Shown here one piece after another: positions 1-25,102 of a DNA stretch of 35,897 nt (positions are counted from its first letter, which is position 1; the number at the start of each line of letters is the position of its first letter). The DNA is taken from sequence record DRR378314_1695, one strand, 5' to 3'. The notes under the pieces were generated by a model. The model had not been told where the DNA came from. It saw nothing but the letters and a program-made list of their open reading frames with translations, and made no database searches. Position numbers and translations under genes: made by a program.

Positions 1-81
1 AGAATTATAGATGAGCCCGTAATAAAAAAAATAGCCTTTCATTCCACGGTGCCGGTCTTGTTCCTACCCGAGCAGTCATAG
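1..81 (+). CDS. 3' end of a universal stress protein (partial, window edge)
   Basis: Frame 1 reads RIIDEPVIKKIAFHSTVPVLFLPEQS*, matching the C-termini of the downstream USP paralogues (e.g. EPVIKKIGFHVTIPFMVIP). Confidence 0.9.
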   Translation, partial: RIIDEPVIKKIAFHSTVPVLFLPEQS

Positions 82-245
82 GAAGGGCAAATAAAAGCCG
101 TTTAACTATAAAAAAGATGGTACATACATGATTCAGAAAATTATTATACCCTAAGGGTAATAACACTTTTAATCATTACAGCTTACACCCTCTTGAATGA
201 AACTCTAAAGCTGCAGTGACCACTAAAAGCTATAAAAACAAACAA

Positions 246-1106
246 ATGAAAGCAAAACATATACTACTGCCCACGGACTTCTCGGCAAACGCGCGGAATG
301 CCATAGACTACGCCATTTACCTTTTTGAAAAGGTAGATTGTGTATTTCATATTTTGCATGCCTTTGAAGTTGGGGCATCCAATTTGAGCAGTACCATGGG
401 AAAGGCAAAGGACACTCGCCTATTTAGGGCAATAAAGGATGAATCCCAGAGAGACATGAAATCCCTAATAGACGAACTGGAATCCGCAAATAAAAATACT
501 AAGCACTCTTTTAAGGGATTAAGTATCGCCGATTCCTTGGTAAATGCCATAGGAAGAACCACTATCGATAAAGGCATACAATATATTTTTATGGGAACCA
601 AAGGTTCCTCCGCTCTGAAAGAGGTATTTATGGGCAGCAACACGGTAAGGATTATTCAGAAAATAGACTTCTGCCCTATCATTGCCGTTCCTGAAAATTA
701 TGATTTTGATCTTCCTGACGAAATAGCCTTTGCCACAAATTTTGAACATATTTACAGTGAGGTAGAACTGGTACCGCTCATAGGATTGGCAAAATTATGG
801 AACTCCAAAATCACCATCGTACATATTGATACGGGCAAGGAATTGCAACCCCATCAACAAACAGCCAAAGATACATTGCCCAAAAGGTTCTTTGGCCTAA
901 ATCACGGTTTTGAAGAAATTAAAGGACATACTTCTATTTCTGGGGCCATAAATGGCTATACCCATGAAAATGAAAATATAGGAATGATTGCCATGGTAAA
1001 TTATTGGCACAGTTTCTTTGAGAAGTTAACCAAAGAAAATGTTATAAAGCGGGTAGCCTTCAATACGGAAGTACCTTTTTTAATATTTCCCCTGATAGAA
1101 CCCTAA
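246..1106 (+). CDS. Tandem-domain universal stress protein (UspA family)
   Basis: ILLPTDFS N-terminus and MGTKG...GSNT ATP-binding motif; ATG at 246 aligns with paralogue starts better than GTG at 216. Confidence 0.92.
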   Translation: MKAKHILLPTDFSANARNAIDYAIYLFEKVDCVFHILHAFEVGASNLSSTMGKAKDTRLFRAIKDESQRDMKSLIDELESANKNTKHSFKGLSIADSLVNAIGRTTIDKGIQYIFMGTKGSSALKEVFMGSNTVRIIQKIDFCPIIAVPENYDFDLPDEIAFATNFEHIYSEVELVPLIGLAKLWNSKITIVHIDTGKELQPHQQTAKDTLPKRFFGLNHGFEEIKGHTSISGAINGYTHENENIGMIAMVNYWHSFFEKLTKENVIKRVAFNTEVPFLIFPLIEP

Positions 1107-1140
1107 ACGTTGCTACCATTTTACAACAATTACGGCCCAC

Positions 1141-1184
1141 ATGATATATGTCATAGGGCAACAATTCTAGAGCAATTAATTTTA
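1141..1184 (+). promoter_or_regulatory. FNR/CRP-like box plus -7-like element
   Basis: ATGAT-ATAT-GTCAT (1141-1154), 22 nt spacer, TAATTTTA (1177-1184). Confidence 0.75.
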
Positions 1185-1240
1185 GTTCACTGAATTCAAC
1201 CAACAAAACCAAACCATATTGAACCGTTAAAATAACATTT

Positions 1241-2080
1241 ATGAAAAATATATTGATACCTACCGACTTTTCTGACAATGCCTGGAATGCCATTAAATAT
1301 GGTACGGCATTGTACTCTAAAACCAGATGTACTTTTCATATTATTCATATAAATCCCATTTCCTACAATTCCGGTGGTGAAGCCGCCATGTATGTTTCTC
1401 CTGAAATATTGGAGGAAACCATCCTAAAGGAAAGTAAGGAAAAATTGGAAAATTTGCTTAAAGAGATTGAACGCCTGCCCCTTAACACCAAACATACCTT
1501 TAAGACATTGGCGTTGTACGGATTTTTTACAGATCATATTAAGCAGGAAGTACAGGATAAAAATATTGACCTGATCATTATGGGAACTAAAGGAGCCACC
1601 GGCCTTAAAGCTGTTTCCTTGGGCAGCAATACCGGTAACGTTCTAACAAAAGTACGATGCGCTGTTCTGGCAGTGCCCGAAGACGCAGAATACAATACCC
1701 CGCGAGAAATAGGGTTTCCTACAGATTTTCAGTTAAGCTATGATATAAAGGTCCTGAACCATATCAAGGAACTTGCTGTACTGCACAGCTCTGCCCTTCG
1801 CTTCCTATATGTTTCCCAAAAAGGAAAAGACCTCAGCGATCTTCAGAAAAAGAATAAGGAATTTATAAAAAATTATTTTAGGGAAAACGAACATTACTTT
1901 CATACCCTTACCATAAAGAATTTGGACGACGCGGTACAAGCATTTGTAGAAAGCAGGGATTTGGATATGCTGGTCATGGTAGCCAAGAACCTAAACTTCT
2001 TGGAACGCATCCTGTTTAAACCGGCTGTCGAAAAAATAAGTTACCATACCAAGATTCCATTTCTAATAGTACACGAATAA
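1241..2080 (+). CDS. Tandem-domain universal stress protein
   Basis: MKNILIPTDFS; MGTKGATGLKAVSLGSNT; C-terminal IPFL. Confidence 0.95.
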   Translation: MKNILIPTDFSDNAWNAIKYGTALYSKTRCTFHIIHINPISYNSGGEAAMYVSPEILEETILKESKEKLENLLKEIERLPLNTKHTFKTLALYGFFTDHIKQEVQDKNIDLIIMGTKGATGLKAVSLGSNTGNVLTKVRCAVLAVPEDAEYNTPREIGFPTDFQLSYDIKVLNHIKELAVLHSSALRFLYVSQKGKDLSDLQKKNKEFIKNYFRENEHYFHTLTIKNLDDAVQAFVESRDLDMLVMVAKNLNFLERILFKPAVEKISYHTKIPFLIVHE

Positions 2081-2124
2081 GACTGCTGGATTTCGATAAT
2101 TGGGCGAGTCCTAGTTACCGCCCT

Positions 2125-2424
2125 TTAAATATGCTGTTGAACAACCCTCACTATGTCGTTCTTTTGAAGCACGCCAGATTGTCGCCAAACCTGCTTCCCA
2201 TTTTTAAATAACACCATGGTAGGTACCCCCCTTACTTGATAAGTACTGGCCAAGGATTGATTCTTGTCCACATCGATCTTTACAATTTTCAGGGCATTCC
2301 CCATTTCCTCCTTGACCTGTTTTAAAATAGATGCCAGCATTTTACAGGGTCCGCACCAATCCGCATGAAAATCGACCAGAACAGGGGTTTCAGAATTGAT
2401 AATATTGCTAAAACTATCTTTCAT
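2125..2424 (-). CDS. trxA: Thioredoxin
   Basis: 99 aa with DFHADWCGPCK active site and cis-Pro GVPT motif. Confidence 0.95.
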   Translation of the reverse strand: MKDSFSNIINSETPVLVDFHADWCGPCKMLASILKQVKEEMGNALKIVKIDVDKNQSLASTYQVRGVPTMVLFKNGKQVWRQSGVLQKNDIVRVVQQHI

Positions 2425-2440
2425 AATTTTATTTTTTAAA

Positions 2441-2510
2441 AGTAAACTACCTCGGGGCAGGCAAGCATCTAAAGGCGGCCTGCAGGTTCAAATCTCGATT
2501 ATCGAGTAAA
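2441..2510. repeat. GC-rich palindromic islet (possible REP/MITE remnant)
   Basis: Bounded by AGTAAA direct repeats (2441-2446, 2505-2510); inverted pairs GCAGGC/GCCTGC and CTCGAT-T-ATCGAG. Confidence 0.4.
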
Positions 2511-2536
2511 ATTACCTAAACAAAGAGAATATGGAA

Positions 2537-2580
2537 CTGACCAATATCATGGTTTTCAAAATTCTTCCGCTTTAGATTTA
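2537..2580 (+). promoter_or_regulatory. FNR/CRP-like box plus -7-like element
   Basis: CTGAC-CAAT-ATCAT (2537-2550), 22 nt spacer, TAGATTTA (2573-2580). Confidence 0.75.
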
Positions 2581-2602
2581 CCGTACCAATGTATAAAACA
2601 CT

Positions 2603-3439
2603 ATGAAAAAAATATTGCTTCCCACTGATTTTTCAGACAATTCCATTAAGGCCATTAGCTACGCTTTGAAGATTTTCAAAAATGTAAAATGTAAATTCTA
2701 TTTAATGCATACCTATATGCCACCAGTGTACAACGCGGAATACCTGGTTGGAAGTCCGGGTCTGATCGGCTTGGGCGATGTAATGCAGGAAACCTCCATG
2801 ACCCAACTGGAAAAACTCAAAAGTCGCTTGGAAAAGGAATATATTAACCCTAATCATAGCTTTATTGTTCACACTGCCTTTAACACCCTGGTGAACGAAG
2901 TTATGGAAACCGTTGAATCTGAAGGTATACACTTGGTAGTAATGGGCACCACAGGAGCCACAGGGGCCAAGGAAATCCTATTTGGAACAAATACGGTACA
3001 TGTCATAAGAAAAGCCAATTGCCCCGTGTTAGTGGTACCCCCTAATTTTGAGTACGAGAATCCGTTGGAAATATTATTCCCAACCGACTATGAAATTGTA
3101 TACAAAAAGGAGAAGTTGACTCCACTTTTGGACATAGCTAATGAATACGGGTCCCAAATAAATGTTTTACACGTATCCACAGGCTATAAACTGACTCCGG
3201 ATCAAGAAAAGCAAAAGAAAGGCCTCGAAAAGATTTTGGGCAACAAGGCATTGTTCCATGATGTACCCAACAATGAAATTATAGACGCCATCAATGCTTT
3301 CCAGGCCAAAGAAAAAATCAACCTGCTGGTCATGGTTCAGAACAAACATACTTTTATGGAGCGACTTTTTATTGAACCTGTTATCAAAAAAATAGGTTTC
3401 CACGTCACTATACCCTTTATGGTAATTCCACAATTTTAA
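2603..3439 (+). CDS. Tandem-domain universal stress protein
   Basis: MKKILLPTDFS; MGTTGATGAKEILFGTNT. Confidence 0.95.
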   Translation: MKKILLPTDFSDNSIKAISYALKIFKNVKCKFYLMHTYMPPVYNAEYLVGSPGLIGLGDVMQETSMTQLEKLKSRLEKEYINPNHSFIVHTAFNTLVNEVMETVESEGIHLVVMGTTGATGAKEILFGTNTVHVIRKANCPVLVVPPNFEYENPLEILFPTDYEIVYKKEKLTPLLDIANEYGSQINVLHVSTGYKLTPDQEKQKKGLEKILGNKALFHDVPNNEIIDAINAFQAKEKINLLVMVQNKHTFMERLFIEPVIKKIGFHVTIPFMVIPQF

Positions 3440-3449
3440 TTCATAGAAA

Positions 3450-4295
3450 ATGAAGAATATACTTGTTGCCACCGATTTTTCCAATAATGCCTATTGTGCC
3501 CTGTTCTACGTAACAAAACTTTTAGCATCGGAAAAATGTACCTTTTACATTCTTAACACCTATTCAGAACTTACCATAGCCCCAGGCAAAAAACTTCCAA
3601 TACTAAATATTAAAAAGCACCTGAAGGAAATGGAATCTGAGTCCAAGGAAAAATTAACGCACACCAAGCACAAGATAGTCTTGGACAATGAGAATCCCCT
3701 TCATACCTTCAAGACCATATCCCAAAAAGGGGACTTGGTAAATATCATAGCACAAAAAATAGGGGAACTTAAGATCCATTTGGTAACCATGGGGAACAAA
3801 GGACTTACAGAAGCTACCGATGTATTTTTTGGAAGCAATACCATTAGGGTGGCCGATAATCTCATATGCCCATTACTGGCCATTCCCGGCGAAATGGATT
3901 TCCACCCAATAAAGGAAATCGCGTTTGTAACTGACTTGAGAAAGGATTGTGGTCAAAAAACTATAGATCAACTGCTATATTTTGCCTCTTTGTCCAAAGC
4001 GTCCATTAGGGTCGTACACGTTCAGGAACAACATATTCTGAACAAGACCCAGGAGGAGAATAGAAAAAATTTGGAAGATGGTCTAAGTCATGTTGGCCAT
4101 TCATTCCAATGGATCAAAAATTTTGACGACAAAGCGAAGGTAATAGATATTTTTTTGGAAAAACTAAAAGTGGATTTGTTCGCCATGGTACATGAAAAGC
4201 GCAACCTTTTTGAAAAGCTTACCCGTGAACCAGTAGTAAAAGACTTAAGCATGTATTCCGATATCCCATTCTTAATTCTCCCCTCCCAAGAATGA
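3450..4295 (+). CDS. Tandem-domain universal stress protein
   Basis: MKNILVATDFS; MGNKGLTEATDVFFGSNT; 10 nt after the previous USP. Confidence 0.95.
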   Translation: MKNILVATDFSNNAYCALFYVTKLLASEKCTFYILNTYSELTIAPGKKLPILNIKKHLKEMESESKEKLTHTKHKIVLDNENPLHTFKTISQKGDLVNIIAQKIGELKIHLVTMGNKGLTEATDVFFGSNTIRVADNLICPLLAIPGEMDFHPIKEIAFVTDLRKDCGQKTIDQLLYFASLSKASIRVVHVQEQHILNKTQEENRKNLEDGLSHVGHSFQWIKNFDDKAKVIDIFLEKLKVDLFAMVHEKRNLFEKLTREPVVKDLSMYSDIPFLILPSQE

Positions 4296-4335
4296 CCATT
4301 GTCATAGAAACTGTCACTAAAGCCTATTATATTTA
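4292..4335 (+). promoter_or_regulatory. FNR/CRP-like box (overlapping upstream stop codon) plus -7-like element
   Basis: ATGAC-CATT-GTCAT (4292-4305, perfect arms), 22 nt spacer, TATATTTA (4328-4335). Confidence 0.8.
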
Positions 4336-4357
4336 ATAAAACTAAAGAAGCATTGTC

Positions 4358-5203
4358 ATGGACAAAAGAATACTAATTCCTACCGATTTCTCCAAAAATG
4401 CGTTGAACGCCACACGCTATGCCTTGGACCTTTATGCAAAGCTTAACTGTGAATTCTATTTTTTGAACATCTTCCGCTTGGATAATTACACCACAAGTAC
4501 CTTAATTATGCCAGAACCGGGCAGTGCGGAATATGAAGCTGCCAAAGAAGCATCTGAGGTGGCGTTTGCCAAGCTACTGGACATGCTGGAGCTTCACCAT
4601 GACAACCCAAAACATAGTTATCATACAATTTCATCCTTTAATTTTCTTTCGGAGGCCATAAAACAGACCATTGCGAGCAAAGATATAGACCTTGTAATCA
4701 TGGGTACACAGGGAGCTACTGGTGCCAAAGGAATCATTTTTGGAAGCAATACTGTAAATGCCATGGAGTCAATAAGGGAGTGCCCAGTAATGGCCATCCC
4801 AGATGAACTTCGGTTTTCCACTCCCAAAGAAATTGTCTTTCCTACTAATTACAAATCCACGTTTAGCCGAAAGGAATTGAATTATTTGATAGAGATTGCC
4901 AAGATGCACAATACGGCGATACGCGTTGTACACTTTACGAAAAAAACTACGCTTGCCGAAGACCAAGAAGCCCACAAAAAACTCTTGGACGACATCCTCG
5001 AAAGTGTTGACCATAGCTTCCATACCCTTACGGATAAGGACGTCGCCCGGGGAATAACCTCTTTTGTAGAAAGTAGGAACAGCGACATGATCGCGTTCAT
5101 CAACAAAAAACATTTTTTGTTCAATAGTATATTTTCCAGACCATTGGTGAAGGAAATTGGTTATGATGCCACTGTTCCTATTTTGGCTCTGAACGAATCT
5201 TAA
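4358..5203 (+). CDS. Tandem-domain universal stress protein
   Basis: ILIPTDFS; MGTQGATGAKGIIFGSNT. Confidence 0.95.
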   Translation: MDKRILIPTDFSKNALNATRYALDLYAKLNCEFYFLNIFRLDNYTTSTLIMPEPGSAEYEAAKEASEVAFAKLLDMLELHHDNPKHSYHTISSFNFLSEAIKQTIASKDIDLVIMGTQGATGAKGIIFGSNTVNAMESIRECPVMAIPDELRFSTPKEIVFPTNYKSTFSRKELNYLIEIAKMHNTAIRVVHFTKKTTLAEDQEAHKKLLDDILESVDHSFHTLTDKDVARGITSFVESRNSDMIAFINKKHFLFNSIFSRPLVKEIGYDATVPILALNES

Positions 5204-5216
5204 AAAACATTGTATT

Positions 5217-5630
5217 ATGAAAAATATTGGAATATGGATGGATAGGGAAAAAGCCCATATCATCCGTTTGGATAACAAAGAAGAGAAATTGGAAACCATT
5301 TTTTCGGAGATGGAATTTTTTAACCGCAAGGGTACCTCTGGACCTAGGGTAAAATCCGGTGTAACCCAAGATGTTACACACGAGCGCACCTATCTGGAAA
5401 GGGAGAAAGCACAATTAAAATCATATTTTAAAAAACTCGCGGACGCCATTGGTGATGCAGATGCCATAGCTCTTTTTGGCCCGGCAGATACCAATGAGAA
5501 GTTTAGAAAAGAACTCTTGGAACACCACAAAGGACTTGCAGAAAGAGTAAAAGCCGTCGCCAAAGCGGATAGCATGACCGAGAACCAGACCAAAGCCTTG
5601 GTAAGGGACTTTTTTGGCCAAAAAAAATAG
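5217..5630 (+). CDS. Small baeRF/host-attachment (eRF1 middle-domain-like) family protein
   Basis: IGIWMDREKAHII N-terminal strand, basic helix, and ALFGPAD motif resembling the 'hhhhGP' signature of this family. Confidence 0.6.
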   Translation: MKNIGIWMDREKAHIIRLDNKEEKLETIFSEMEFFNRKGTSGPRVKSGVTQDVTHERTYLEREKAQLKSYFKKLADAIGDADAIALFGPADTNEKFRKELLEHHKGLAERVKAVAKADSMTENQTKALVRDFFGQKK

Positions 5631-5649
5631 TTGGTTAATTTTTAATTGG

Positions 5650-5690
5650 GAGACCGCCAAAACAATTTTTGTTTAGGCGGTCTTATTTAA
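5650..5690 (+). terminator. Stem-loop, probable intrinsic terminator/attenuator
   Basis: AGACCGCC (5651-5658) pairs with GGCGGTCT (5676-5683), followed by TATTT. Confidence 0.6.
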
Positions 5691-5701
5691 ATCCATTGCC
5701 C

Positions 5702-6601
5702 ATGAACAGTCTCTTGGACTTTTTTAACGACCCATTAGTATTGAAGATTGCCAAACTTTTGTTGTGGATACTGGCCATAATAATCTTTATTGGGTTTTTT
5801 CGTAGGGTACTAAAAAGAAGAATAGATAATGTTTCGGTTAGATACAAGGCACAAAAAGGAGTAGAAATTATTGGCTACGTTCTAATTTCGCTATTGATCC
5901 TAATGGCATTTACGGTAGAAAACATTAAAGATTACACCATTATCATAGGCCTGTTCACTGCTGGAATAACCTTTACCCTCCAAGAATTGATCCTAAGTAT
6001 TGCGGGATCTTTCTATATCTTTTTTGTAAAGGTCTATAAACCTGGAGACCGTATTGAAATTAATGGCATTAAAGGGGATGTAATTGATATAGATAGCATC
6101 TATACCACCCTAATGGAGATTGGGGAATGGGTAAGTAGTGACAATTATTCTGGTAGGATTGTCAAGATCAGCAACGCCTTTGTTTTTAAAGGTCCTATTA
6201 AGAACTATTCCATGGATTTTCCATTTGTTTGGGATGAACTCAATATACTTATAACCTATGATTCGGATGTTGCACTGGCAAAAAAGATAGTAATGGAAAA
6301 GGCCACTGATTTCCTTTCCGAATACACCAAGAATTCTATAGCAAGGTGGGAGGAAATGGTGGAGCATTATTATATAGAAAATGCCACTATTGCCCCAACC
6401 TTGGCCATTAGTCCAACAGATAATTGGATAGCCATAAATCTAAGGTATATTACGGATTATAAGTTAAGGCGGATAACAAAGCACGAACTGTTCGAGCAAA
6501 TAGTACAGGCCCTTATGGCTACGGATGACAAAGTAAAATTGGCTTCCACCACCTTGCAGCTTCTAAAAATACCGGAATTGGATATTCATCTAAAGCAATG
6601 A
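5702..6601 (+). CDS. Small-conductance mechanosensitive channel (MscS family)
   Basis: Three N-terminal TM segments and YKPGDRIEINGIKGDVIDI; ATG 5702 preferred because TTG 5669 lies inside the hairpin. Confidence 0.9.
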   Translation: MNSLLDFFNDPLVLKIAKLLLWILAIIIFIGFFRRVLKRRIDNVSVRYKAQKGVEIIGYVLISLLILMAFTVENIKDYTIIIGLFTAGITFTLQELILSIAGSFYIFFVKVYKPGDRIEINGIKGDVIDIDSIYTTLMEIGEWVSSDNYSGRIVKISNAFVFKGPIKNYSMDFPFVWDELNILITYDSDVALAKKIVMEKATDFLSEYTKNSIARWEEMVEHYYIENATIAPTLAISPTDNWIAINLRYITDYKLRRITKHELFEQIVQALMATDDKVKLASTTLQLLKIPELDIHLKQ

Positions 6602-6602
6602 T

Positions 6603-7448
6603 ATGAAAAAGGAATTGGACATTGAAATTCTAAAATCCTCAGGGGAACGGGCCAAATTTTCTTTGGACAAACTGCGTAAATCCCTTAAACACAGTGGGGC
6701 CGACCATAATCTTGTGGAACAAATTGTAGACCAGGTAAAGGATGAGTTATATGAAGGCATATCTACCAATGAGATATATAACAGGGCCTATTCCCTATTG
6801 AAAAAAAACAAATCCATCTTTGCTTCAAAATACAAACTAAAAAAAGCCATTTACGAATTGGGGCCAACAGGCTTTCCCTTTGAACGTTTTGTGGCCGCCA
6901 TTCTGGAATATTCTGGCTACCATACTAGTGTAGATCAAATAATGAACGGTATCTGTGTAACACATGAAATTGATGTTGTTGCGGAAAAAAATGGAACTGT
7001 CACTGTTATAGAATGTAAGTTCCACTCGGAAGAAGGGCGTAACTGCAATGTTAAGATCCCCCTCTATATCCATTCCAGATATAACGACGTAAAAGGACAT
7101 TGGACCACCAAGAAAAATGAACATAGGGAACTGGATAAAGGCTGGGTGGTAACCAACACGCGTTTTACCAGCGATGCCTCCACTTATGGAAAATGTGCAG
7201 GATTGTATTTACTAAGCTGGGACCTACCATTGAATGATGGCCTTAAGGACCGTATAGATCGTTTAGGACTTTACCCCATCACCGTTTCTACCCTGCTCAG
7301 CAATAGGGAAAAACAGTTTTTATTGAGTAGGGATGTGGTCTTATGTAGGCAGCTTTGGAAGGATAAGTTTTTTTTGGATCATTTGGGAATCTCCAGTACC
7401 AGGAAAGAAAAAATCCTGAACGAGATTAAACAGCTTTGCAATCATTAA
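6603..7448 (+). CDS. ATP-cone domain fused to an Mrr-like PD-(D/E)xK nuclease domain
   Basis: ILKSSGERAKFSLDKLRKSL (ATP-cone); GFPFERFVA, HEIDVVA, IECKFH, VVTNTRFT (restriction-endonuclease fold). Confidence 0.85.
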   Translation: MKKELDIEILKSSGERAKFSLDKLRKSLKHSGADHNLVEQIVDQVKDELYEGISTNEIYNRAYSLLKKNKSIFASKYKLKKAIYELGPTGFPFERFVAAILEYSGYHTSVDQIMNGICVTHEIDVVAEKNGTVTVIECKFHSEEGRNCNVKIPLYIHSRYNDVKGHWTTKKNEHRELDKGWVVTNTRFTSDASTYGKCAGLYLLSWDLPLNDGLKDRIDRLGLYPITVSTLLSNREKQFLLSRDVVLCRQLWKDKFFLDHLGISSTRKEKILNEIKQLCNH

Positions 7449-7451
7449 AAC

Positions 7452-8822
7452 ATGAATATAATCAAAATACATTTCCTGGGCGCTTCCGGAACCGTAACAG
7501 GCTCTAAATTCTATTTGGAGACCCCTGAATTGAATCTGATGATAGATTGCGGAATGTTCCAAGGGTTAAAGGAACTTCGACAACAAAACTGGATTCCCTT
7601 GCCCATAGATGTCTCAAAAATAGACATGGTGCTTTTGACCCATGGACATCTGGACCATACAGGATACCTGCCCAGATTACTAAAGGAAGGCTTTAGAGGT
7701 AAAATTTTGGGCACAGCTCCCACTTTGGCAATTGCCCGAATAATTCTTTTGGACAGTGCCAAGATACACGAAGAAGAAGCCGATCAGGCCAATAAGGAAG
7801 GGTACAGCAAGCACGACCCAGCACTCCCTTTTTACACCGTAAAAGACGCCGAACGTACCATAAGTTTGTTTCAATCCATGGAAAAGGAAGAATGGATTAC
7901 GCTCTCAGAGCACATTCGCCTCAAATACCGATATAATGGTCATATCATAGGGGCGACCTACATTGAATTGGAGATCTTCGGGAAACTATTTGTTTTTTCT
8001 GGGGACGTTGGTAGATTACATGATGATCTATTGGAAGCCCCGGTACGTCCAAAATGGGCCGATTATCTTTTTGTGGAAAGCACCTATGGGAATAAATTGC
8101 ATCCTAAAGAAGACGTAGAAGGAAAACTCAGCGATCTCATAAAAACAACCATTAGGGAGAGGGGAAATCTCATCATCCCATCCTTTGCCGTGGAGCGACT
8201 ACAATCGCTAATGTATCTACTTTGGCAGTTGTATAAAAAAAACAAGATCCCAAATATCCCTATTTTTATAGATAGCCCCATGGGCAACAATGTGTTGTCT
8301 GTATTTGAACAATTTCCACATTGGCATAAACTACCTATGAACGAGTACCATGCCATGTGCAATCACTTCAATATTATAACCTCCTATGCCGACACATGGA
8401 AGACCATCGACGATCCCAGATCTAAAATTGTAATTGCCGGAAGCGGCATGGTAACAGGAGGCAGGGTACTTACCTATCTAAAACAGCTGATAGACATAGC
8501 ATCTACATCGGTTTTATTAGTGGGGTTCCAAGCAGAAGGAACCCGCGGACGCCAACTATTGGAAGGGGCCTTTGAACTAAAGCTGTTTGGAAAATACTAT
8601 CCCGTTAAGGCAAAAATCCATCATTTGGAAAGTCTATCCGCCCATGCCGATCAAAGCGAGTTGTTGCATTGGATGGAGGAAATCGACAATATTCCCGAAA
8701 CAGTTTTCCTTATCCATGGGGAACCTACTTCCCTTGATGCCTTTAGAGTAAAGATCAGGGATGTTCATGGTTGGAACGTACAGATTCCAAAACTCAATGA
8801 AATACAAAAAATTTTCATCTAG
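7452..8822 (+). CDS. Beta-CASP metallo-beta-lactamase fold ribonuclease
   Basis: FLGASGTVTGS, IDCG, THGHLDH, GHIIG, SGDVG, ESTYG, SAHADQ, IHGE motifs. Confidence 0.92.
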   Translation: MNIIKIHFLGASGTVTGSKFYLETPELNLMIDCGMFQGLKELRQQNWIPLPIDVSKIDMVLLTHGHLDHTGYLPRLLKEGFRGKILGTAPTLAIARIILLDSAKIHEEEADQANKEGYSKHDPALPFYTVKDAERTISLFQSMEKEEWITLSEHIRLKYRYNGHIIGATYIELEIFGKLFVFSGDVGRLHDDLLEAPVRPKWADYLFVESTYGNKLHPKEDVEGKLSDLIKTTIRERGNLIIPSFAVERLQSLMYLLWQLYKKNKIPNIPIFIDSPMGNNVLSVFEQFPHWHKLPMNEYHAMCNHFNIITSYADTWKTIDDPRSKIVIAGSGMVTGGRVLTYLKQLIDIASTSVLLVGFQAEGTRGRQLLEGAFELKLFGKYYPVKAKIHHLESLSAHADQSELLHWMEEIDNIPETVFLIHGEPTSLDAFRVKIRDVHGWNVQIPKLNEIQKIFI

Positions 8823-8829
8823 AATGGAG

Positions 8830-8873
8830 ATGACAAATCTCATAGCAGGGATTTTTAAAAGTTCATAACTTTA
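8830..8873 (+). promoter_or_regulatory. FNR/CRP-like box plus -7-like element
   Basis: ATGAC-AAAT-CTCAT (8830-8843), 22 nt spacer, TAACTTTA (8866-8873). Confidence 0.7.
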
Positions 8874-8890
8874 TCCAAGATCCAAAAAAA

Positions 8891-9319
8891 ATGGAAAAGA
8901 AAAATACGGTCACAGATAACGGGAGGAAAATTGCCCTTTTGCATTGGAAAATCCAGCAATGGAAATTGAAGTTTCAATTAATGGATGACGAAATTGTTTT
9001 TATAAAACGCCTATTGGATTCCAATGCCTTTAAGCCCAACATCCCTAACCTCTTTGAACGTCTACAGGATTTCAAAACCCGTTTGCAGGTTATCGAAAAA
9101 AGAAATGCAGCTGTAAGATCTCAAATTTCATTGCACGAAAACAATTTGGGCAATGAGTTGGATATAGCGGACAGCTCCATTAGTGCGGACGACGTTAAAA
9201 AAAATGATAGTCTTCAAGTGAACGTGGATGAATGTCAGAGGGATTACCAAAATCTGAAAAGCGAAATTTTCAATTATACCGGGAGCATTTTTATAATGAA
9301 CGAACCAGAAGGGAAATGA
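8891..9319 (+). CDS. Hypothetical all-helical protein
   Basis: 142 aa ORF with amphipathic helices, A-rich translation-initiation region and its own predicted promoter. Confidence 0.8.
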   Translation: MEKKNTVTDNGRKIALLHWKIQQWKLKFQLMDDEIVFIKRLLDSNAFKPNIPNLFERLQDFKTRLQVIEKRNAAVRSQISLHENNLGNELDIADSSISADDVKKNDSLQVNVDECQRDYQNLKSEIFNYTGSIFIMNEPEGK

Positions 9320-9327
9320 TTGCACAA

Positions 9328-9371
9328 CTGACCAACGTCATATTAATTCATCAACACATCCACTACCTTCA
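9328..9371 (+). promoter_or_regulatory. FNR/CRP-like box plus -7-like element
   Basis: CTGAC-CAAC-GTCAT (9328-9341), 22 nt spacer, TACCTTCA (9364-9371). Confidence 0.7.
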
Positions 9372-9419
9372 CAACCATTCCTGAAATTAGAAAAAACTAT
9401 TAAAACAAAGGTTTATACC

Positions 9420-10076
9420 ATGAAAAAAGCATTAATTCTACTCGCAATAGTACTAACGGGATGTTCTTCCACGAGTTTGGTGGAAAACTGGAAAAACCCG
9501 GACATTGTGCTCTTCCATGCCAATAAGGTGTTGATAGTAGGTATGGCATCAAACGAGGAAGCCAGAACGGATTTCGAAACAAGCATGCTGAAAGAGTTTA
9601 GCAAAAGAAATGTTGATGCAATGCGCAGCCTTGATGTTTTTGATGTTTCATTTACCGATACCCGTAAGACCGAAAAGGAACTTGATGATGTGGAACAAAG
9701 TCTACTGGACAAAGACTTTGATGCCATACTTTTTACCAAAGTAGTTGGTTCCGAGGACAAGGAAAGCTTTTTGAAATCCATTTCCAGATGGAACAATTAC
9801 CAAGGAAGATTTAATGACGATTATCTAAGTCACCAGGACATCTACTACGACCAGGGATATTATGATAAGTTTACGGTATACCATGCGGAGACTACACTGT
9901 ATTGTATTTGTGAAGGCAAGGAAAGGTCTATGATCTGGAGGGGAAGTATAGACATCTCCGACCCCCAAAACATACAAAAAACTATCAAAGATTACATAAA
10001 GCTAGTTGTTATGGCTATGGAGGACCAAGATCTAATTTTTATTAAAGAAGAAAAAAATGAAATTACTGGTCTATAG
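9420..10076 (+). CDS. Lipoprotein of unknown function (possibly DUF4136-like)
   Basis: Signal peptide II MKKALILLAIVLTG-C; Tyr-rich loop followed by MIWRG; family assignment from resemblance only. Confidence 0.8.
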   Translation: MKKALILLAIVLTGCSSTSLVENWKNPDIVLFHANKVLIVGMASNEEARTDFETSMLKEFSKRNVDAMRSLDVFDVSFTDTRKTEKELDDVEQSLLDKDFDAILFTKVVGSEDKESFLKSISRWNNYQGRFNDDYLSHQDIYYDQGYYDKFTVYHAETTLYCICEGKERSMIWRGSIDISDPQNIQKTIKDYIKLVVMAMEDQDLIFIKEEKNEITGL

Positions 10077-11064
10077 TGCTAAAGATTTTGAAATCCCTTT
10101 TTTAAATAACGCCAATAACAAGATCCATAAGGTAACCTATACAACAGATGCCTTAAATTCCGAGACTGCGATCCAAGCTGTTGGGCATATGGCAGTTTCC
10201 ATATTTTCCGGTGATGATGCCTCCTCTTTAGTATTGGAAAAGCTATCGGATCTGGGAGTTCGTTATATTAGCTTGCGTTCGGCTGGATACAACAACGTGC
10301 ATCTTAAAACAGCACATAAATTTGGGATTAAGGTAGCCAATGTTCCGGAGTATTCCCCCTACTCCATTGCCGAACATGCGGTAGCCCAATTACAGGCCCT
10401 CAACCGGAAGATTATTTTAGCGGATAGGCAGGTACACGCCTATAATTTTCTGCAAAGCAACCTGATGGGTTTCGATTTGAACCGAAAGACCGTAGGCATT
10501 GTCGGGACCGGTAAAATTGGCAGTGTAATGGCGAAGATCATGAACGGTTTTGGTTGCAAGATATTGGCCAATGACCTTAAACCCGATTATAGACTGGTTC
10601 AATTATATGATCTTACCTACACTTCTTTGGACGAGCTTTGCAAACAATCGGATATAATAAGCCTTCACATTCCGCTCTCCCAAGAGAACTACTATTTAAT
10701 AGACAAACAAAAATTGGCCCTAATGAAACCAGGGGTTATTTTGATAAATACGGCAAGAGGGGCCTTAGTGGAGACTAAAGCCTTGATAAATGCCCTGGAA
10801 AAAAAAGCAATTGGTGGTTACTGCACAGATGTTTATGAAAAGGAAATAGGATCGTTCTTTAAGGACAATTCTAAAGATGGAATCAAAGACACCCAATTAA
10901 TAAAGTTATTGTCCTTTCCAAATGTGCTTCTTACACCCCACCAAGGATTTATTACCAAAGAGGCCTTGACCAATATTGCCGAAGTTACCTTTGAAAATCT
11001 GAATAGCTGGGAAGAAGGTAAACCGTCCAATAACGAACTGGTCCTTGAAACCATTAGTTCATAG
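10057..11064 (+). CDS. ldhA: D-lactate dehydrogenase (D-2-hydroxyacid dehydrogenase family)
   Basis: RSAGYNNV, VPEYSPYSIAEH, GIVGTGKIG, INTARG, DVYEKE, TPHQGF. Confidence 0.88.
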   Translation: MKLLVYSAKDFEIPFLNNANNKIHKVTYTTDALNSETAIQAVGHMAVSIFSGDDASSLVLEKLSDLGVRYISLRSAGYNNVHLKTAHKFGIKVANVPEYSPYSIAEHAVAQLQALNRKIILADRQVHAYNFLQSNLMGFDLNRKTVGIVGTGKIGSVMAKIMNGFGCKILANDLKPDYRLVQLYDLTYTSLDELCKQSDIISLHIPLSQENYYLIDKQKLALMKPGVILINTARGALVETKALINALEKKAIGGYCTDVYEKEIGSFFKDNSKDGIKDTQLIKLLSFPNVLLTPHQGFITKEALTNIAEVTFENLNSWEEGKPSNNELVLETISS

Positions 11065-12471
11065 CAACGGACTAAACAATTTTCCAAAACCTTCCTTTAG
11101 CTTTTCTCCCCAGGGTCTTTTTATATGGTCTTCATAGACCAACATTCTACTTGAATATGCATCCTTAAGAAAATCTTCCTTCAATAACTGGGCAAAAGAG
11201 GTGTCATAAACAATGGCATTTACCTCATAATTCTGTTCAAAACTCCTATCATCCAAATTGGCCGTGCCTATGGTAGCTATAGCATCATCACCAACAATGA
11301 TCTTACTGTGCAAAAATCCGTCAGGAAATAAATAGATCTTCACCCCGGATTTAAGAAGGGGTTCAAAATAGGACCGCACACTCCAACTTACTATTTTGTT
11401 ATCCGCATTTTCTGAAACCATTAAACGTACATCCACACCACCCAGTGCAGCGGTCTGCAAGGCCTGCATTACAGCCTGTCCGGGAATTACATACGGATTG
11501 GTAATAAACAGATAATTCTTCGCCTTATTGATTATTGTAAAGTAGGTTTGTTCCAAAGAAGGAAAATCGTCATCAGGTCCCCCGGAAACGATTTGCACAA
11601 GTTTACCTTCATTTTTATCAATGGCAGCTTTATCCGTATCCAAGGGTAGCACAGCAATAGTCTTTTGACAAACCAGGTACCAATCCATTGCAAAAACAAA
11701 ATCCAAATGACTTGCCGCCGTACCTTCCAGTCTTAGGTGCATATCGTGCCAATTGCCCAGTTCCAGATCGCCTTTCAAATATTTATCCGATACGTTTATT
11801 CCGCCGGTAAATGCCACCTTGCCATCTACCACAATAATCTTTCTATGATTTCTATAGTTTAAGGACGAAAAAAAACGCCCGAACTTGAAAGGCAGAAAAG
11901 GATATACCTCTACCCCAATAGTTGTTAATTTTCTTAAATAGACCTTACTTAATGAAAAGCTGCCAATACCGTCATAGATCATTCTTACCTCTACCCCTTG
12001 CGCAATTTTACGCTCAAAAAGCTGCAATAGCCTTTCTGTTAGTTCCCCTTCTTCAAAAATGTAGTATTGTAGGTGTATACGGTATTGGGCGTTCTCCAAA
12101 GATTCGAAGATAGATTCGAAGGTCGTTTTTCCATCTTTCAATAGTTGCAGTTCATTACTGTCCGTTGGTGGGAAATGTGAATTTCGATAAACCAAGGTCA
12201 TGAGTTTTTGGTACTTCCCGCTCATGGATGCCATATGCTGCATTAAGGGCTCCGGCAAATTTAAGAAGGCCTTCTTTTTTAATTTCAACAACTTATTTTT
12301 TCTTCGATTTCTTCCCAAAAGAAGATAAAGGAACATCCCGCCCACGGGAATGGTAAAAATGGCCAGAAGCCAGGCCAAACTTTTTGAAGGTTTGGCACCG
12401 TGCAAAAGGATACTTATGATAATGATTAAGGCAATAAGCAAATAAAGACTAAGAAAAATAGCATTCCACAT
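11059..12471 (-). CDS. cls: Cardiolipin synthase
   Basis: N-terminal PLDc_N TM pair and two HKD motifs (NHRKIIVVDG, LHSKIIVGDD). Confidence 0.95.
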   Translation of the reverse strand: MWNAIFLSLYLLIALIIIISILLHGAKPSKSLAWLLAIFTIPVGGMFLYLLLGRNRRKNKLLKLKKKAFLNLPEPLMQHMASMSGKYQKLMTLVYRNSHFPPTDSNELQLLKDGKTTFESIFESLENAQYRIHLQYYIFEEGELTERLLQLFERKIAQGVEVRMIYDGIGSFSLSKVYLRKLTTIGVEVYPFLPFKFGRFFSSLNYRNHRKIIVVDGKVAFTGGINVSDKYLKGDLELGNWHDMHLRLEGTAASHLDFVFAMDWYLVCQKTIAVLPLDTDKAAIDKNEGKLVQIVSGGPDDDFPSLEQTYFTIINKAKNYLFITNPYVIPGQAVMQALQTAALGGVDVRLMVSENADNKIVSWSVRSYFEPLLKSGVKIYLFPDGFLHSKIIVGDDAIATIGTANLDDRSFEQNYEVNAIVYDTSFAQLLKEDFLKDAYSSRMLVYEDHIKRPWGEKLKEGFGKLFSPLL

Positions 12472-12511
12472 GTTTCCCTTTTAGTTTGTTGACTTGGATA
12501 AGTACAATGAA

Positions 12512-12554
12512 CAAATTTCGGGAATTGTTGTGTTTTAACTATGATAATTATCAG
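12512..12554 (-). promoter_or_regulatory. FNR/CRP-like box plus -7-like element upstream of cls
   Basis: Minus strand: CTGAT-AATT-ATCAT (12554-12541), 21 nt spacer, GAAATTTG (12519-12512). Confidence 0.6.
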
Positions 12555-12613
12555 CTATAGAAAGCTTTGAGCTATATATAGCTATCCTATTGTAGCAGTG
12601 AATGGTAATATAA

Positions 12614-12650
12614 AACCCTCAAAACATAAATGTTTTGTCTTGAGGATTCT
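12614..12650. terminator. Possible terminator hairpin
   Basis: CCTCAA...TTGAGG inverted repeat with A/T flanks, downstream of the minus-strand ORF ending at 12733. Confidence 0.4.
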
Positions 12651-12732
12651 TTATTGTCCTTATTATTTAGTTCCAAACATTGCTGGAAATTAGTTTTGTC
12701 CAATAATCAAAGGTTTTTATGTATTTACGGTC

Positions 12733-13284
12733 CTATGAGTGAGCAAGCTTACCTGCAATTATACCAGGGCCTTTAAAAAGCTGTGCAATAGTCTTGAAAA
12801 GACCCATAGTTTTAAAAGGCGCAAAATCGAATCGTAGAATGGCTTCCGGCGACTCCTCCCCTACAATGTCCAGTCCGTTCACTATCTCGAAGTCCAGAAA
12901 CTTAATTCCGTCCGCCCGTTCTTGATATCTATCACTATAGATAATTCTACTCCCAGTTTTGGCAAGATAGAATCTGAACGTACTGTAAGAGCCCGGTTCC
13001 AGGCTAAGGACGCTTTTGGATTTTAGAAAAAGTCCGGTATGCATACCTTTGATAGGTATGGAAGCCTGACCTGGAAAGTCTGCAATAAAATGCTCCTGTC
13101 CTCTACTATCTATAGCAGAAAACTTAGTAATGTTCAAATCCATTTCGGACACTTTCATATCCGTGGCATAGATATTCCGCAGCACCAAATCCTTTATACA
13201 TATTCCATCAGAATCCAATAGATACCTATCGGATAGCAGAGGAACCACTTGCCAAGTTTTGGGATAAAAATTCATTTTTTTCAT
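12733..13284 (-). CDS. Hypothetical protein (weak DUF4382-like resemblance)
   Basis: 183 aa ORF with LEPGSYSTFRFYL and AILRFDF; canonical TAAATTTG -7 element upstream. Confidence 0.75.
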   Translation of the reverse strand: MKKMNFYPKTWQVVPLLSDRYLLDSDGICIKDLVLRNIYATDMKVSEMDLNITKFSAIDSRGQEHFIADFPGQASIPIKGMHTGLFLKSKSVLSLEPGSYSTFRFYLAKTGSRIIYSDRYQERADGIKFLDFEIVNGLDIVGEESPEAILRFDFAPFKTMGLFKTIAQLFKGPGIIAGKLAHS

Positions 13285-14329: not shown

Positions 14330-14965
14330 TTAGCCGGCATTTATTAACCCAGCAGAACAATCCTCCAAAATAAACCTGTTCTCCGTTTGGCTCAAGAAAT
14401 CCCTATAATCTTTCAACTCCTTTTCAACATCTGCATTTTTCTCCATATCGTGAAAGTGATGGGTCGCAAGTCTTTCCAATCCGGCAAAGGCATTCATTCT
14501 ATGAAATCCAAACATTACCCCATCATCTACGGATGTCTCATTAAAGAACTCCCCTTCCAAGGTAAATGCCTCCTTTGGTGCATTCCAGCTTGTAGTTAAA
14601 ATATACTTTTTACCTTTTAAAAGTCCACCGGTACCGTAATTAATGGCCGGATTCTTACTACTTCTTCCATCACTGTGGTAAATACCATTTTGGTGTCCGT
14701 AAGTAAAAACCTCGTCAATATACTTTTTAAAGCCAAAAGGCAATTGAAACCACCAAATAGGAGAATGGTATATAATTAAATCTGCCCATTTAAACTTTTC
14801 CACTTCCGCTTTGGAATCGTAATTTTCCCCTACCTGTGTAGATTTTACAGCGTACCCTTCCAAGGATTGGAAGTGCGCAATAGTTGTATTGAACAAAGTC
14901 TCATTAAACCTGCCTCCTGAATGCGCAAATGGGTGTCCCCCATTAATAATAAATATCTTTTTCAT
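14330..14965 (-). CDS. mdaB: NAD(P)H:quinone oxidoreductase, MdaB family
   Basis: MKKIFIINGG..FAHSGGRFN, PIWWFQLP..FKKYIDEVF, DGRS, YGTGGLL.GKKY, SWNAP; start moved to 14965. Confidence 0.88.
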   Translation of the reverse strand: MKKIFIINGGHPFAHSGGRFNETLFNTTIAHFQSLEGYAVKSTQVGENYDSKAEVEKFKWADLIIYHSPIWWFQLPFGFKKYIDEVFTYGHQNGIYHSDGRSSKNPAINYGTGGLLKGKKYILTTSWNAPKEAFTLEGEFFNETSVDDGVMFGFHRMNAFAGLERLATHHFHDMEKNADVEKELKDYRDFLSQTENRFILEDCSAGLINAG

Positions 14966-15019
14966 GCTTACCATTTTAATTATGGTGTAAAAATAATAGG
15001 AATACATGTATATTAAAAA

Positions 15020-15044
15020 TAATACAAATTATACCTTTGTATTA
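15020..15044. promoter_or_regulatory. Inverted repeat in the mdaB/LysR divergent promoter
   Basis: TAATACAAA-N7-TTTGTATTA overlapping the -7 element TACCTTTG (15032-15039). Confidence 0.5.
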
Positions 15045-15058
15045 AAATTTTAATGGTT

Positions 15059-15970
15059 ATGGTAAATTTGGAATGGTATAGGACCTTTAAAGAGATCTAT
15101 GAAAACGGAACCTTAACAAAGGCTTCCGTAGCCTTATATGCTTCGCAACCCGGAGTAAGTGTTCATTTAAATGCCCTGGAAGCCTACGTGGGCAAAAAAC
15201 TTTTTGAACGTACCTCAAGGAAAATGATCCCAACCGAGGAAGGCAAATTTCTCTACGAGTACATTATAGACCCTATTAATGTATTGGAGATAGCGGAACA
15301 ACATTTTAAAAAAACAACGCAGGAGAAAAATCCTTCATTACATATTGGCATGTGTTCTGAAACCTTTCAAATGATCATAGAGCCAGAAGTACCAAAATTA
15401 GAATTCGATCTAGTGGCAAAATTTGGAAACCATATGGACTTGATAAAAGACTTGAACAATGGTATATTGGATTTGGTAATAACTCCAAAAAAACAAACCA
15501 ACAAAACAACTTTGGTCAACTACACTCCTTTTTCCAAGGAAAGTATTGTATTGGTTGCCGGAAAACGAACAGACACCTTCAAAATAGAAGATCGGCTAAA
15601 AAAAGGGGACCTACAGACAGTGGAACAAGAGCTTTTGCAACACAGGTGGTATAGTGCTTCAAATGAAATGGAACACTTTAGGAAATTTTGGTATAAAAAC
15701 TTTAACAAACGTCCCACTTTTAAGCCTAATTACATCTTGCCAAGTATAAATTCGATCATCAGATGTTTGAGCAATGAAAATGGATTGGCTCTGGTTCCCG
15801 ATTTTCTTTGTAAGGATGCCATTGCTTCCAATGAGATTAAATTGGTCTGGGAAGGTAACACCCCTACTGAAAACACCCTCTATTTTGCCTCTAGGACCGA
15901 CTTAAAATACAAAAAGGAATTGGCCATCCTACAGGACATTTTTATATCTAAAATGACAAGTGAATTTTAA
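15059..15970 (+). CDS. LysR family transcriptional regulator
   Basis: HTH GTLTKASVALYASQPGVS..LE...LFERTSRKMIPTEEG; divergent from mdaB; start 15053 or 15059. Confidence 0.93.
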   Translation: MVNLEWYRTFKEIYENGTLTKASVALYASQPGVSVHLNALEAYVGKKLFERTSRKMIPTEEGKFLYEYIIDPINVLEIAEQHFKKTTQEKNPSLHIGMCSETFQMIIEPEVPKLEFDLVAKFGNHMDLIKDLNNGILDLVITPKKQTNKTTLVNYTPFSKESIVLVAGKRTDTFKIEDRLKKGDLQTVEQELLQHRWYSASNEMEHFRKFWYKNFNKRPTFKPNYILPSINSIIRCLSNENGLALVPDFLCKDAIASNEIKLVWEGNTPTENTLYFASRTDLKYKKELAILQDIFISKMTSEF

Positions 15971-16067
15971 GAATATTCAAAAAACACCTAAGCCTATTCA
16001 CTTTTCTTTGAACTATATCCACCCTATAACAACTATTTAAAGCAATGTGGGATTTGATGAAATAACA

Positions 16068-16075
16068 TATATTTG
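16068..16075 (+). promoter_or_regulatory. Bacteroidota sigma-A -7 element
   Basis: TATATTTG 39 nt upstream of the ATG at 16115. Confidence 0.5.
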
Positions 16076-16114
16076 AAAATACAGAAGGGAAAACTAAATT
16101 GATTTAGTTAAACT

Positions 16115-16921
16115 ATGAAATTAAAGAATCAAGAGCTAAAAGATAAATTAATTGGATCGAGCCTACTTTGGCGCCATAGACCTGTTAAGAATCATGTTAT
16201 TGACGAAATCAAGAACGGTTATATATATTTTAGCAGACCCGATCAACTTAATGACCCATACGATTGTTTTCCTGGTTTAATTAAAATGAAAGATGACCCG
16301 ATTACTATTAAAAAATACATTCAGAAGCATTACCCGGGAGATTCCAGAGCAGAAAGGAGGAGACAGGCCAAGGAACTTGCTAAAACTGATGGCGTACATA
16401 TACTCGAGGAGATTAATTCAAATCAAATTCAAAATATTGGAGTTGCTTCTTTCACAATAAATTGCAGTAACCTTATGATGTGGTCACATTACTCGGATTT
16501 TCATCAAGGAATATGCATGGGATATAATGGAACATTAGACAAAGATTACTTTAATTCGTGGCCGGTAAAATATGTTCAAAAAGATGAGAGTTTTGAAGTA
16601 ATGGAATTCGATCCAAGTGACCATGACCAATTTGCAAAAGGAATGAGTCATTTGGTTAGTGTTAAGTCGTTTCTGTGGCAAATGGAATATGAACAAAGAA
16701 TTATTAAAGTGAAAAGCGGGAAATATAAGTTTGCTCCAAACGCATTAGAATTTATTGTTCTTGGCTCCAAAATATCAACTGAATTTCAAAATGAAGTTCT
16801 GAATGCTATACATGAAAATGGGTCATACAGTAACCTAAGTGTTTATAGTTTACGGCCTTCTAGTAAAAATGTATTTGGAATGAATTTTACCAAGGTCACT
16901 CCACAAACCAGTAACAACTAA
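16115..16921 (+). CDS. DUF2971 domain-containing protein
   Basis: LNDPYD, MWSHYSDFHQGICMGY, VKY, KS..WQMEYEQR, IVLGSK motifs. Confidence 0.85.
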   Translation: MKLKNQELKDKLIGSSLLWRHRPVKNHVIDEIKNGYIYFSRPDQLNDPYDCFPGLIKMKDDPITIKKYIQKHYPGDSRAERRRQAKELAKTDGVHILEEINSNQIQNIGVASFTINCSNLMMWSHYSDFHQGICMGYNGTLDKDYFNSWPVKYVQKDESFEVMEFDPSDHDQFAKGMSHLVSVKSFLWQMEYEQRIIKVKSGKYKFAPNALEFIVLGSKISTEFQNEVLNAIHENGSYSNLSVYSLRPSSKNVFGMNFTKVTPQTSNN

Positions 16922-16929
16922 TAAATAAA

Positions 16930-18342: not shown

Positions 18343-18405
18343 AAATTAACTAACTTCAAGTTTAATTAAAGGCCATACCACTAACCCAATATAATAAATT
18401 GCCAA

Positions 18406-19299: not shown

Positions 19300-19547
19300 T
19301 CCATCCTCATGACTTCATAAAGTCCCCTTTGCCTCAGCACAAAAAAACAGAATAACATATATTCAATGAAGTAGGCATTATTCAATTTATTACTTTCAAA
19401 CAAATAAAATTCAGCTTTTTTCTTACTCTCGAATTTTCAAAACAAATAATAAAATAAGGATCAACAAACCATACTTTTTTAATATCTCCTGCCACAACTG
19501 AACCTCAATCCTTATTTTTGCCAAATATTCAACATTGCATTCTGGTC

Positions 19548-25091: not shown

Positions 25092-25102
25092 ATAATTAAA
25101 CA

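Follow-up and report, generated by a model that had tools for sequence, protein, structure and literature searches.

The DNA stretch DRR378314_1695, which at its full length of 35,897 nucleotides we call the window, carries six copies of a palindromic box, each in front of a gene or genes, several of them for universal stress proteins (USPs) and one for a cardiolipin synthase (cls). These boxes are likely to be sites for Crp/Fnr-family activators at class II promoters of a low-oxygen island, with RR1, a receiver-Crp fusion protein, as the local regulator. Sites, spacing, conservation, gene content and domain make-up were all read directly from the DNA and its translations.

The box pattern, (A/C)TGA(C/T)-N4-(G/A/C)TCAT, is a 14-mer that we searched for on both strands of the window. 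It gave eight strand matches at six places: 1141, 2537, 4292, 8830 and 9328 on the plus strand and 12541-12554 on the minus strand, exactly where an original prediction, made from the letters of the stretch, had put them. As had also been claimed, each box stands directly upstream of a gene, with 100, 66, 66, 61, 92 and 83 nt from box start to start codon. The octamers quoted in that prediction likewise proved correct, beginning after a gap of 22 nt at 1177, 2573, 4328, 8866 and 9364, and after 21 nt at the cls box. The sites are as follows.

1141..1154, plus strand: box 1, ATGATATATGTCAT; octamer TAATTTTA at 1177-1184; tandem-USP gene 1241-2080
2537..2550, plus strand: box 2, CTGACCAATATCAT, plus side; octamer TAGATTTA at 2573-2580; USP genes 2603-3439 and 3450-4295
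2537..2550, minus strand: box 2, minus side; TAATTTTA at 2514-2507 after 22 nt; thioredoxin gene 2424-2125
4292..4305, plus strand: box 3, ATGACCATTGTCAT, overlapping the stop codon of the preceding USP gene; octamer TATATTTA at 4328-4335
8830..8843, plus strand: box 4, ATGACAAATCTCAT; octamer TAACTTTA at 8866-8873; gene for a 142-residue protein, 8891-9319
9328..9341, plus strand: box 5, CTGACCAACGTCAT; octamer TACCTTCA at 9364-9371; genes 9420-10076 and 10057-11064
12541..12554, minus strand: box 6, CTGATAATTATCAT (minus-strand letters); GAAATTTG at 12519-12512 after a 21-nt gap; cls 12471-11059

In 100 dinucleotide shuffles of the window, the 14-mer matched 0.79 times on average and four times at most, so that none reached eight; as the pattern was tuned on the six sites themselves, this figure overstates the case, and the independent controls are the genome-wide counts given below. 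TAnnTT occurs at 1.4% of intergenic window positions, and finding it at one fixed offset from five of six boxes gives P ~3e-9. With the box relaxed to TGA-N6-TCA, the inverted-repeat core found upstream of a gene at all six sites, and with gaps of 19 to 26 nt allowed, six matches fell at 22 nt, one at 25 nt and none at the other six gaps. The sixth match at 22 nt is box 2 read on the opposite strand, towards the thioredoxin gene, and box 2 apparently serves both directions. Single palindromes with a -7 box 22 nt away on both sides recur elsewhere as paired matches 29 nt apart, for example in genomes G080, G104, G012, G024 and G115.

The octamers allow the boxes to be placed relative to a transcription start. 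In Flavobacterium psychrophilum, the sigma-A consensus TAnnTTTG occupies -12 to -5 of mapped starts (PMC9723704). From the box centre to the first octamer base is 29.5 nt; if the published F. psychrophilum position of the -7 box is applied, the centre would therefore fall at -41.5, and the -41/-42 of the original prediction agrees with this calculation. For CRP and FNR, -41.5 is the class II position. At box 1, transcription is predicted to start near 1189. At 347 related sites, introduced below, G was found at only 13% of the places expected for the -33 TTG. The promoters would thus be of the sigma-A type; their -7 element is often the weaker TAnnTTTA, a -33 element is not recognisable, and with core elements this weak, transcription should depend on a bound activator.

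If box and octamer form one promoter unit, an excess of the pair is predicted genome-wide and in related Flavobacteriaceae, and both were found. The nearest genome, G001, has 71% of sampled 31-mers in common with the window, and the cls and beta-CASP proteins of the two are 99% identical; going by the names of the nearest homologues of its proteins, G001 belongs to Arenibacter. We combined both elements in a composite pattern, TGAY-N4-VTCAT-N22-TANNTT. The 14-mer alone gave 223 strand matches in G001 against 78 for a reversed control, and the composite 58 against 1. Among 121 sampled genomes of the family, the composite occurred 2183 times against 168 for the controls. In a sample of 151 genomes from the phylum, high counts were mostly confined to this family, with 10 to 15 against 0 to 2 in a few other lineages. 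Twenty of the 58 composites in G001 lie within C1:2164143-2218177, whose right-hand end corresponds to the window. In 100 kb around this island, 24 places match the 14-mer; 22 of the 23 that were listed are intergenic by open-reading-frame (ORF) calls, and TAnnTT stands 22 nt away, on one side or both, at 18 of the 22 examined. The preferred gap is sharp: G001, G042, G016, G053 and G036 together have 290 sites at 22 nt, 27 at 21 nt and 32 at 23 nt.

The same promoter unit is concentrated around RR1 genes. We collected 80 loci that carry one (995 kb in named records, from more than 25 genera), and in these the composite matched 347 times against 1 for the control. It was present at least once in all 80, at a density of 3.5 per 10 kb as against 0.1 genome-wide in G001. 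A gap of 22 nt accounted for 364 sites there, and each other gap from 17 to 28 nt for 4 to 17. A logo of the 347 sites has the TGA-N6-TCA core of the window boxes. It had been pointed out that all six window octamers differ from TAnnTTTG and that four boxes are followed by AG; both statements are accurate within the window, and neither trait is general. Among the 347 sites, the octamer ends in G in 52% and in A in 44%, and the box is followed by A/T and then T/G. The cls box leaves a conservation footprint as well, being kept at -77 to -86 in six of seven evaluable orthologues (at least 61% identity) while the spacer around it differs. No such box turned up in the four orthologues of 52 to 56% identity, nor at a comparable place before 19 housekeeping-type paralogues (at most 45% identity), where the one match, at -32, was unrelated.

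Three side observations concern these matches. The box is asymmetric across the 80 RR1 loci (L099-L178): the promoter-side base after TCA is T in 356 of 375 cases, and its far-side mirror base is A in 149 and C in 197, which may reflect a polymerase contact or half of a -33 element. Contigs C9, C10, C22, C36 and C38 of G053 hold five identical copies of one box-like 42-mer with a 23-nt gap, probably a mobile element rather than a set of promoters. A second composite cluster in G001 (C1:108001-136000; L042 and L043) stands before genes for a baeRF (eRF1-like) protein, a CheB-CheR-PAS fusion, a hydrolase and a thioredoxin-like protein.

For candidate regulators, we turned to the proteins of G001. 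Four of them pass the Pfam HTH_Crp_2 cut-off, and three have the recognition helix E-(S/T)-x-I-R. The original prediction had assigned the boxes to one Crp/Fnr-family factor. The family holds, in that FNR's recognition-helix Glu and Arg are kept in the G001 proteins. In place of the single factor, three paralogues with near-identical recognition helices probably act, a canonical FNR-like protein and two receiver-Crp fusions. The FNR-like protein, at 228 residues, aligns end to end with Aliivibrio FNR and keeps two N-terminal cysteines, the central cysteine ('mvCeip') and the recognition-helix Glu and Arg, with Ile in place of FNR's Ser. FNR proper, an oxygen-labile [4Fe-4S] sensor, has four cluster-ligating cysteines, three N-terminal and one central. 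The two fusions, RR1 (350 residues) and RR2 (355 residues), consist of a receiver, a cNMP-binding-like domain and HTH_Crp_2. Their Response_reg scores of 102 and 99.9 bits are far above the Pfam cut-off of 30.2; no NCBIfam model reaches its cut-off on either protein, and among solved structures only the two halves find separate matches, with no chain covering the proteins end to end.

The RR1 gene of G001 lies ~3.5 kb past the window's left end. The window stops short of it by that distance, which explains why no Crp/Fnr-type regulator or Crp-type helix-turn-helix turned up among 33 scanned window ORFs, as the original prediction had held. Seven nucleotides before RR1 ends the gene for a kinase, HK1, whose first PAS domain has its best solved matches in the haem domains of FixL (E 9e-12), DosP and EcDOS. 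A His and an Arg are aligned, which may be the counterparts of the proximal His and distal Arg of FixL, and HK1 is predicted to be a FixL/DosP-like, haem-binding PAS kinase. RR2, further from the window than RR1, overlaps the gene for HK2 in the G001 island (L038:467-4265), a 917-residue multi-PAS kinase with a LOV domain (E 1e-33 to LOV kinases; NCRFLQ motif). RR2-type matches, at 41-45% identity to RR1, occur in ~10 of the 121 family genomes.

Several associations tie RR1 to the boxes. An HK1 homologue adjoins RR1 in 76 of the 80 loci, and two sites are conserved there: a divergent site before HK1, and another directly behind the RR1 stop codon. Of the 299 sites found in full-length loci, 60 are of this latter kind. 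A receiver-Crp fusion was found in 57 of the 121 family genomes. The median composite count is 24 in these and 8 in the 64 genomes without it (control ~1), and the island-type beta-CASP gene is present in 40 of 57 as against 4 of 64, counts that are descriptive because genomes of one family are not independent, so that a Mann-Whitney P overstates the difference. All 11 genomes with the island-type cls also have the fusion. Autoregulation of the HK1-RR1 operon was considered and rejected, since no composite points at the operon in the full-length loci among the 80.

Target genes in G001 point to oxygen. A box had been predicted before hemN, cbb3 oxidase genes and a crp/fnr gene, and each has its example here: hemN (TIGR00538; 435.5 bits, cut-off 325), ccoS (33.3 bits, cut-off 28.35) and the fnr-like gene itself, which is preceded by ATGATAATTGTCAG, 22 nt and TAAATTTG. 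This gene sits beside hemN, ccoS and a USP gene in G001, and beside a ccoI-type ATPase and ccoNO in G008 and G104. Other composite targets include six USP genes, cytochrome c, NadA, a SulP transporter and CBS proteins, among others. In the G001 layout, the window is the edge of a ~60-kb island. The island contains many USPs, Hsp20, P-type ATPases, ackA-pta, glk, pfkB, ppsA and an RNase, together with two D-lactate dehydrogenase (D-LDH) genes, an M50-CBS protease and a glycogen-phosphorylase-like gene. Its USPs are clustered and have one motif in common with the genes for Hsp20, ATPase, RNase and sugar kinases. Because this content resembles that of the lxa locus of Burkholderia cenocepacia and the DosR regulon of Mycobacterium tuberculosis, the island most likely serves survival at low oxygen.

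The role given to RR1 has to be weighed against a simpler arrangement, in which only the canonical FNR-like protein binds the boxes and the receiver-Crp fusions recognise other DNA or none, being mere residents of the island. We regard this as a possible, though rather unlikely, alternative. It draws on G104, a 100% complete genome in which our query found no fusion and which nevertheless has a syntenic USP/ATP-cone/beta-CASP cluster with six composite sites, so that the FNR-like protein alone may suffice. It also accounts for the excess over control in fusion-free genomes, and for the position of the fnr-like gene next to the classical targets ccoNO, the ccoI-type ATPase and hemN. Against it, RR1 and RR2 keep the E-(S/T)-x-I-R helix of the FNR-like protein, every RR1 locus has at least one composite at a density well above that of the G001 genome, and island genes co-occur with the fusion, as counted above. 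The case for RR1 is weakened, besides by G104, by the related ancestry of the genomes compared, by the lack of a composite directed at its operon, and by the origin of the regulator evidence, all of which comes from G001 and not from the window's own genome. Nor do the sites separate the paralogues: by eye, the same mix of TGAC and TGAT half-sites occurs near fnr, near RR1 and in fusion-free genomes, and with recognition helices so alike, the acting paralogue is not to be told from sequence. Within the window, the cls promoter fits poorly, with its 21-nt gap and poor octamer GAAATTTG. The FNR-like protein also departs from FNR proper. In our reading of the Aliivibrio alignment it lacks one of the N-terminal cluster cysteines, with another cysteine elsewhere in the sequence, and it scores 101.8 bits against the NCBIfam Fnr (NF008365) cut-off of 228, for which reason we call it FNR-like and not FNR. 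On balance, RR1 is the best candidate for local regulator of the window promoters, with cross-talk from the FNR-like protein probable; the paralogues probably have this promoter class in common.

The boxes could also be genuine Crp/Fnr sites that answer to a signal other than oxygen, such as starvation or stationary phase, light, redox state or a small-molecule ligand. The LOV domain of HK2, the cNMP-binding-like domain kept in the fusions, the general stress character of USPs, Hsp20 and thioredoxin, and the cysteine missing from the FNR-like protein by alignment can all be read this way. We consider it unlikely, given that hemN, ccoS/cbb3, D-LDH, ackA-pta and the FixL/DosP-like haem-PAS kinase point to oxygen. 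Oxygen limitation raises cbb3 oxidase and haem synthesis in F. psychrophilum (PMC9723704), and low oxygen induces the lxa locus, of like content and with a TGA-N6-TCA motif (PMC3721108). That the boxes are repressor operators or part of an alternative sigma factor site seems very improbable. The asymmetry of the box, with its strong preference for T on the promoter side and for A or C on the far side, could be a polymerase contact, as such a reading would have it, but the core is two-fold symmetric, the downstream element, TAnnTTT(G/A), is of the sigma-A type, two divergent promoters are served by single boxes, and the combination of a -41.5 centre with no -33 element is the one that textbooks give for CRP/FNR class II activators. 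Chance or base composition acting on an after-the-fact pattern is barely credible as an explanation: the 14-mer was written to fit six sites, its ATGA and TCAT ends are common words, and alone it exceeds its G001 control by less than threefold, but the composite counts and the spacing peak refute this account, and the cls footprint also speaks against it.

The genes served by the boxes in the window, and one that has no box of its own, are these.

216..1106, plus strand: tandem-USP gene at the window's left edge, without its own box
1241-2080, plus strand: tandem-USP gene behind box 1
2603-3439 and 3450-4295, plus strand: tandem-USP genes behind box 2
starting at 4358, plus strand: tandem-USP gene behind box 3
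10057-11064, plus strand: D-LDH-like gene behind box 5, after the gene for a 218-residue protein
12471-11059, minus strand: cls, island copy, behind box 6

For the USP gene at 216..1106, the G001 layout makes a box-driven promoter further to the left probable. Behind box 3, 4358-8822 form a probable operon for a USP, a 137-residue protein, an MscS-like channel, an ATP-cone/Mrr-like protein and a beta-CASP RNase, and this gene set is also present, with boxes, in G104. The 142-residue product of 8891-9319 and the 218-residue product of 9420-10076 matched no family. The last two genes of the probable operon, encoding the 281-residue ATP-cone/Mrr-like protein and the 456-residue beta-CASP RNase, adjoin in the window (6603-8822) as they do in G104 (L095:4037-6260). 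The best NCBIfam match of the RNase is the Cas14 beta-CASP model, far under its cut-off; a metal-dependent RNase is likewise listed for the lxa locus (PMC3721108). Contigs of RNA library X2 overlap several of the box-driven genes (window 1-13000), and contigs of this kind show neither starts, strand nor level. The spacer between thioredoxin gene and box 2 (2469-2513) seems to vary between strains: contigs of runs X1, X2 and X3 end loose there, and the X2 end at 2485 resembles library adapter. Further right, at 14330-26790, box-free neighbours encode a flavodoxin-like reductase, a divergent LysR regulator, a PhoD-like phosphatase, an MscS-like channel, KefF/KefC and the PntAB transhydrogenase.

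Taken together, these features suggest how the promoters might work. Dimeric activators of the Crp/Fnr family would bind the six boxes, each centred at -41.5 of a sigma-A promoter. RR1, encoded in an operon with the haem-PAS kinase HK1, would drive the window promoters, while the FNR-like protein would add probable cross-talk and regulate its own gene through its own box. Binding and activation, the start sites, the signal and the choice of paralogue are each predicted in this scheme. More tentatively, and with some doubt, we propose that the receiver-Crp/Fnr fusions of marine Flavobacteriaceae are phosphorylation-controlled activators of the FNR type that collapse FixL-FixJ-FixK into a two-protein system. 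Together with the LOV-kinase paralogue and the cysteine-bearing FNR-like protein, they might then feed three inputs, oxygen sensed by haem, oxygen sensed by Fe-S and blue light, into a single rigid promoter class, through which a USP island of the dormancy type is turned on.

Flavobacteriaceae play a major part in breaking down marine particles and algal matter, sites where oxygen falls steeply, and to our knowledge their hypoxia sensing and survival have hardly been studied. We found no published account of this regulon or of receiver-Crp fusions in Flavobacteria, in a search outside which most subscription journals and regulon databases lay. In one paper, a Flavobacteriales Crp/Fnr homologue is taken to be MalR-like, and 'universal stress', 'receiver' and 'TTGA' do not occur in it (PMC8510549); oxygen limitation induces cbb3 according to the F. 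psychrophilum transcriptome paper, whose main text contains neither 'Fnr' nor 'Crp' (PMC9723704). The promoter rule of box, 22 nt and -7 element predicts tens of targets per genome across the family, and would be useful for annotating and engineering activator-dependent promoters in Bacteroidota. It comes with candidate regulators, including a receiver-Crp fusion that stays below the cut-off of every NCBIfam model and has no solved match over its full length.

Class II promoters of FNR and Anr in Proteobacteria carry TTGAT-N4-ATCAA centred at -41.5. The promoters described here resemble them in the TGA-N6-TCA core, in the inferred -41.5 centre and in the recognition-helix Glu and Arg of the G001 regulator. 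Core targets are the same too, namely genes for cbb3 assembly, hemN, a USP gene and that of the regulator. In alpha-proteobacteria, the FNR core regulon comprises cbb3 oxidase, a P-type ATPase, HemN, UspA and the regulator itself (PMC2908626). Unlike in FNR systems, the outer box base is A or C rather than T, the Ser of FNR is Ile, and the promoter partner is a Bacteroidota -7 box rather than a -10 hexamer. The protein falls under the NCBI Fnr cut-off, and two paralogues have a receiver domain.

The FixL-FixJ-FixK cascade of rhizobia, Caulobacter and Burkholderia dolosa, like the system predicted here, combines an oxygen-sensing haem-PAS kinase with a Crp/Fnr-type activator, cbb3, hemN and USP targets and TGA-N6-TCA boxes (PMC2908626, PMC6127331). 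There, the kinase phosphorylates FixJ and FixJ induces fixK, whereas here a single polypeptide holds both the receiver and a FixK-like module, which, judged by domain order and operon structure, would save the cascade one step. No separate FixJ-type regulator inducing a separate fixK was seen, RR1 being a 350-residue fusion and the HK1-RR1 operon having no site directed at it.

In function, the island also recalls the DosS/DosT-DosR dormancy regulon of M. tuberculosis, which has 10 USPs among 48 genes (PMC6127331). In it, a haem kinase and its response regulator control many USPs, alpha-crystallin and a phosphofructokinase-type kinase in hypoxia, much as is predicted here, and the likeness is one of function and not of descent. 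In DosR the output domain is of another kind (NarL/LuxR), as are the DNA motif and the sensor domains, which are GAF.

By analogy, the closest known system is the lxa locus of B. cenocepacia, of which the island is the Bacteroidota counterpart. The locus comprises 50 genes, with six USPs, alpha-crystallin and a cation ATPase, along with the metal-dependent RNase, sugar kinases, Anr-related Crp regulators and two-component systems, and carries a TGA-N6-TCA motif at 17 intergenic points (Sass et al. 2013; PMC3721108). It is induced by low oxygen and required for anoxic survival (PMC3721108; PMC6127331). Both islands are large (50 genes in lxa, ~60 kb here), hold the same gene classes and have TGA-N6-TCA at many intergenic points. 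They differ in phylum, in promoter type and in the fusion of the Crp module to a receiver here; induction and a survival phenotype have been demonstrated for lxa, and the present island is known from its sequence. Beside lxa and DosR, it would be a third, phylogenetically distant USP-rich low-oxygen island.

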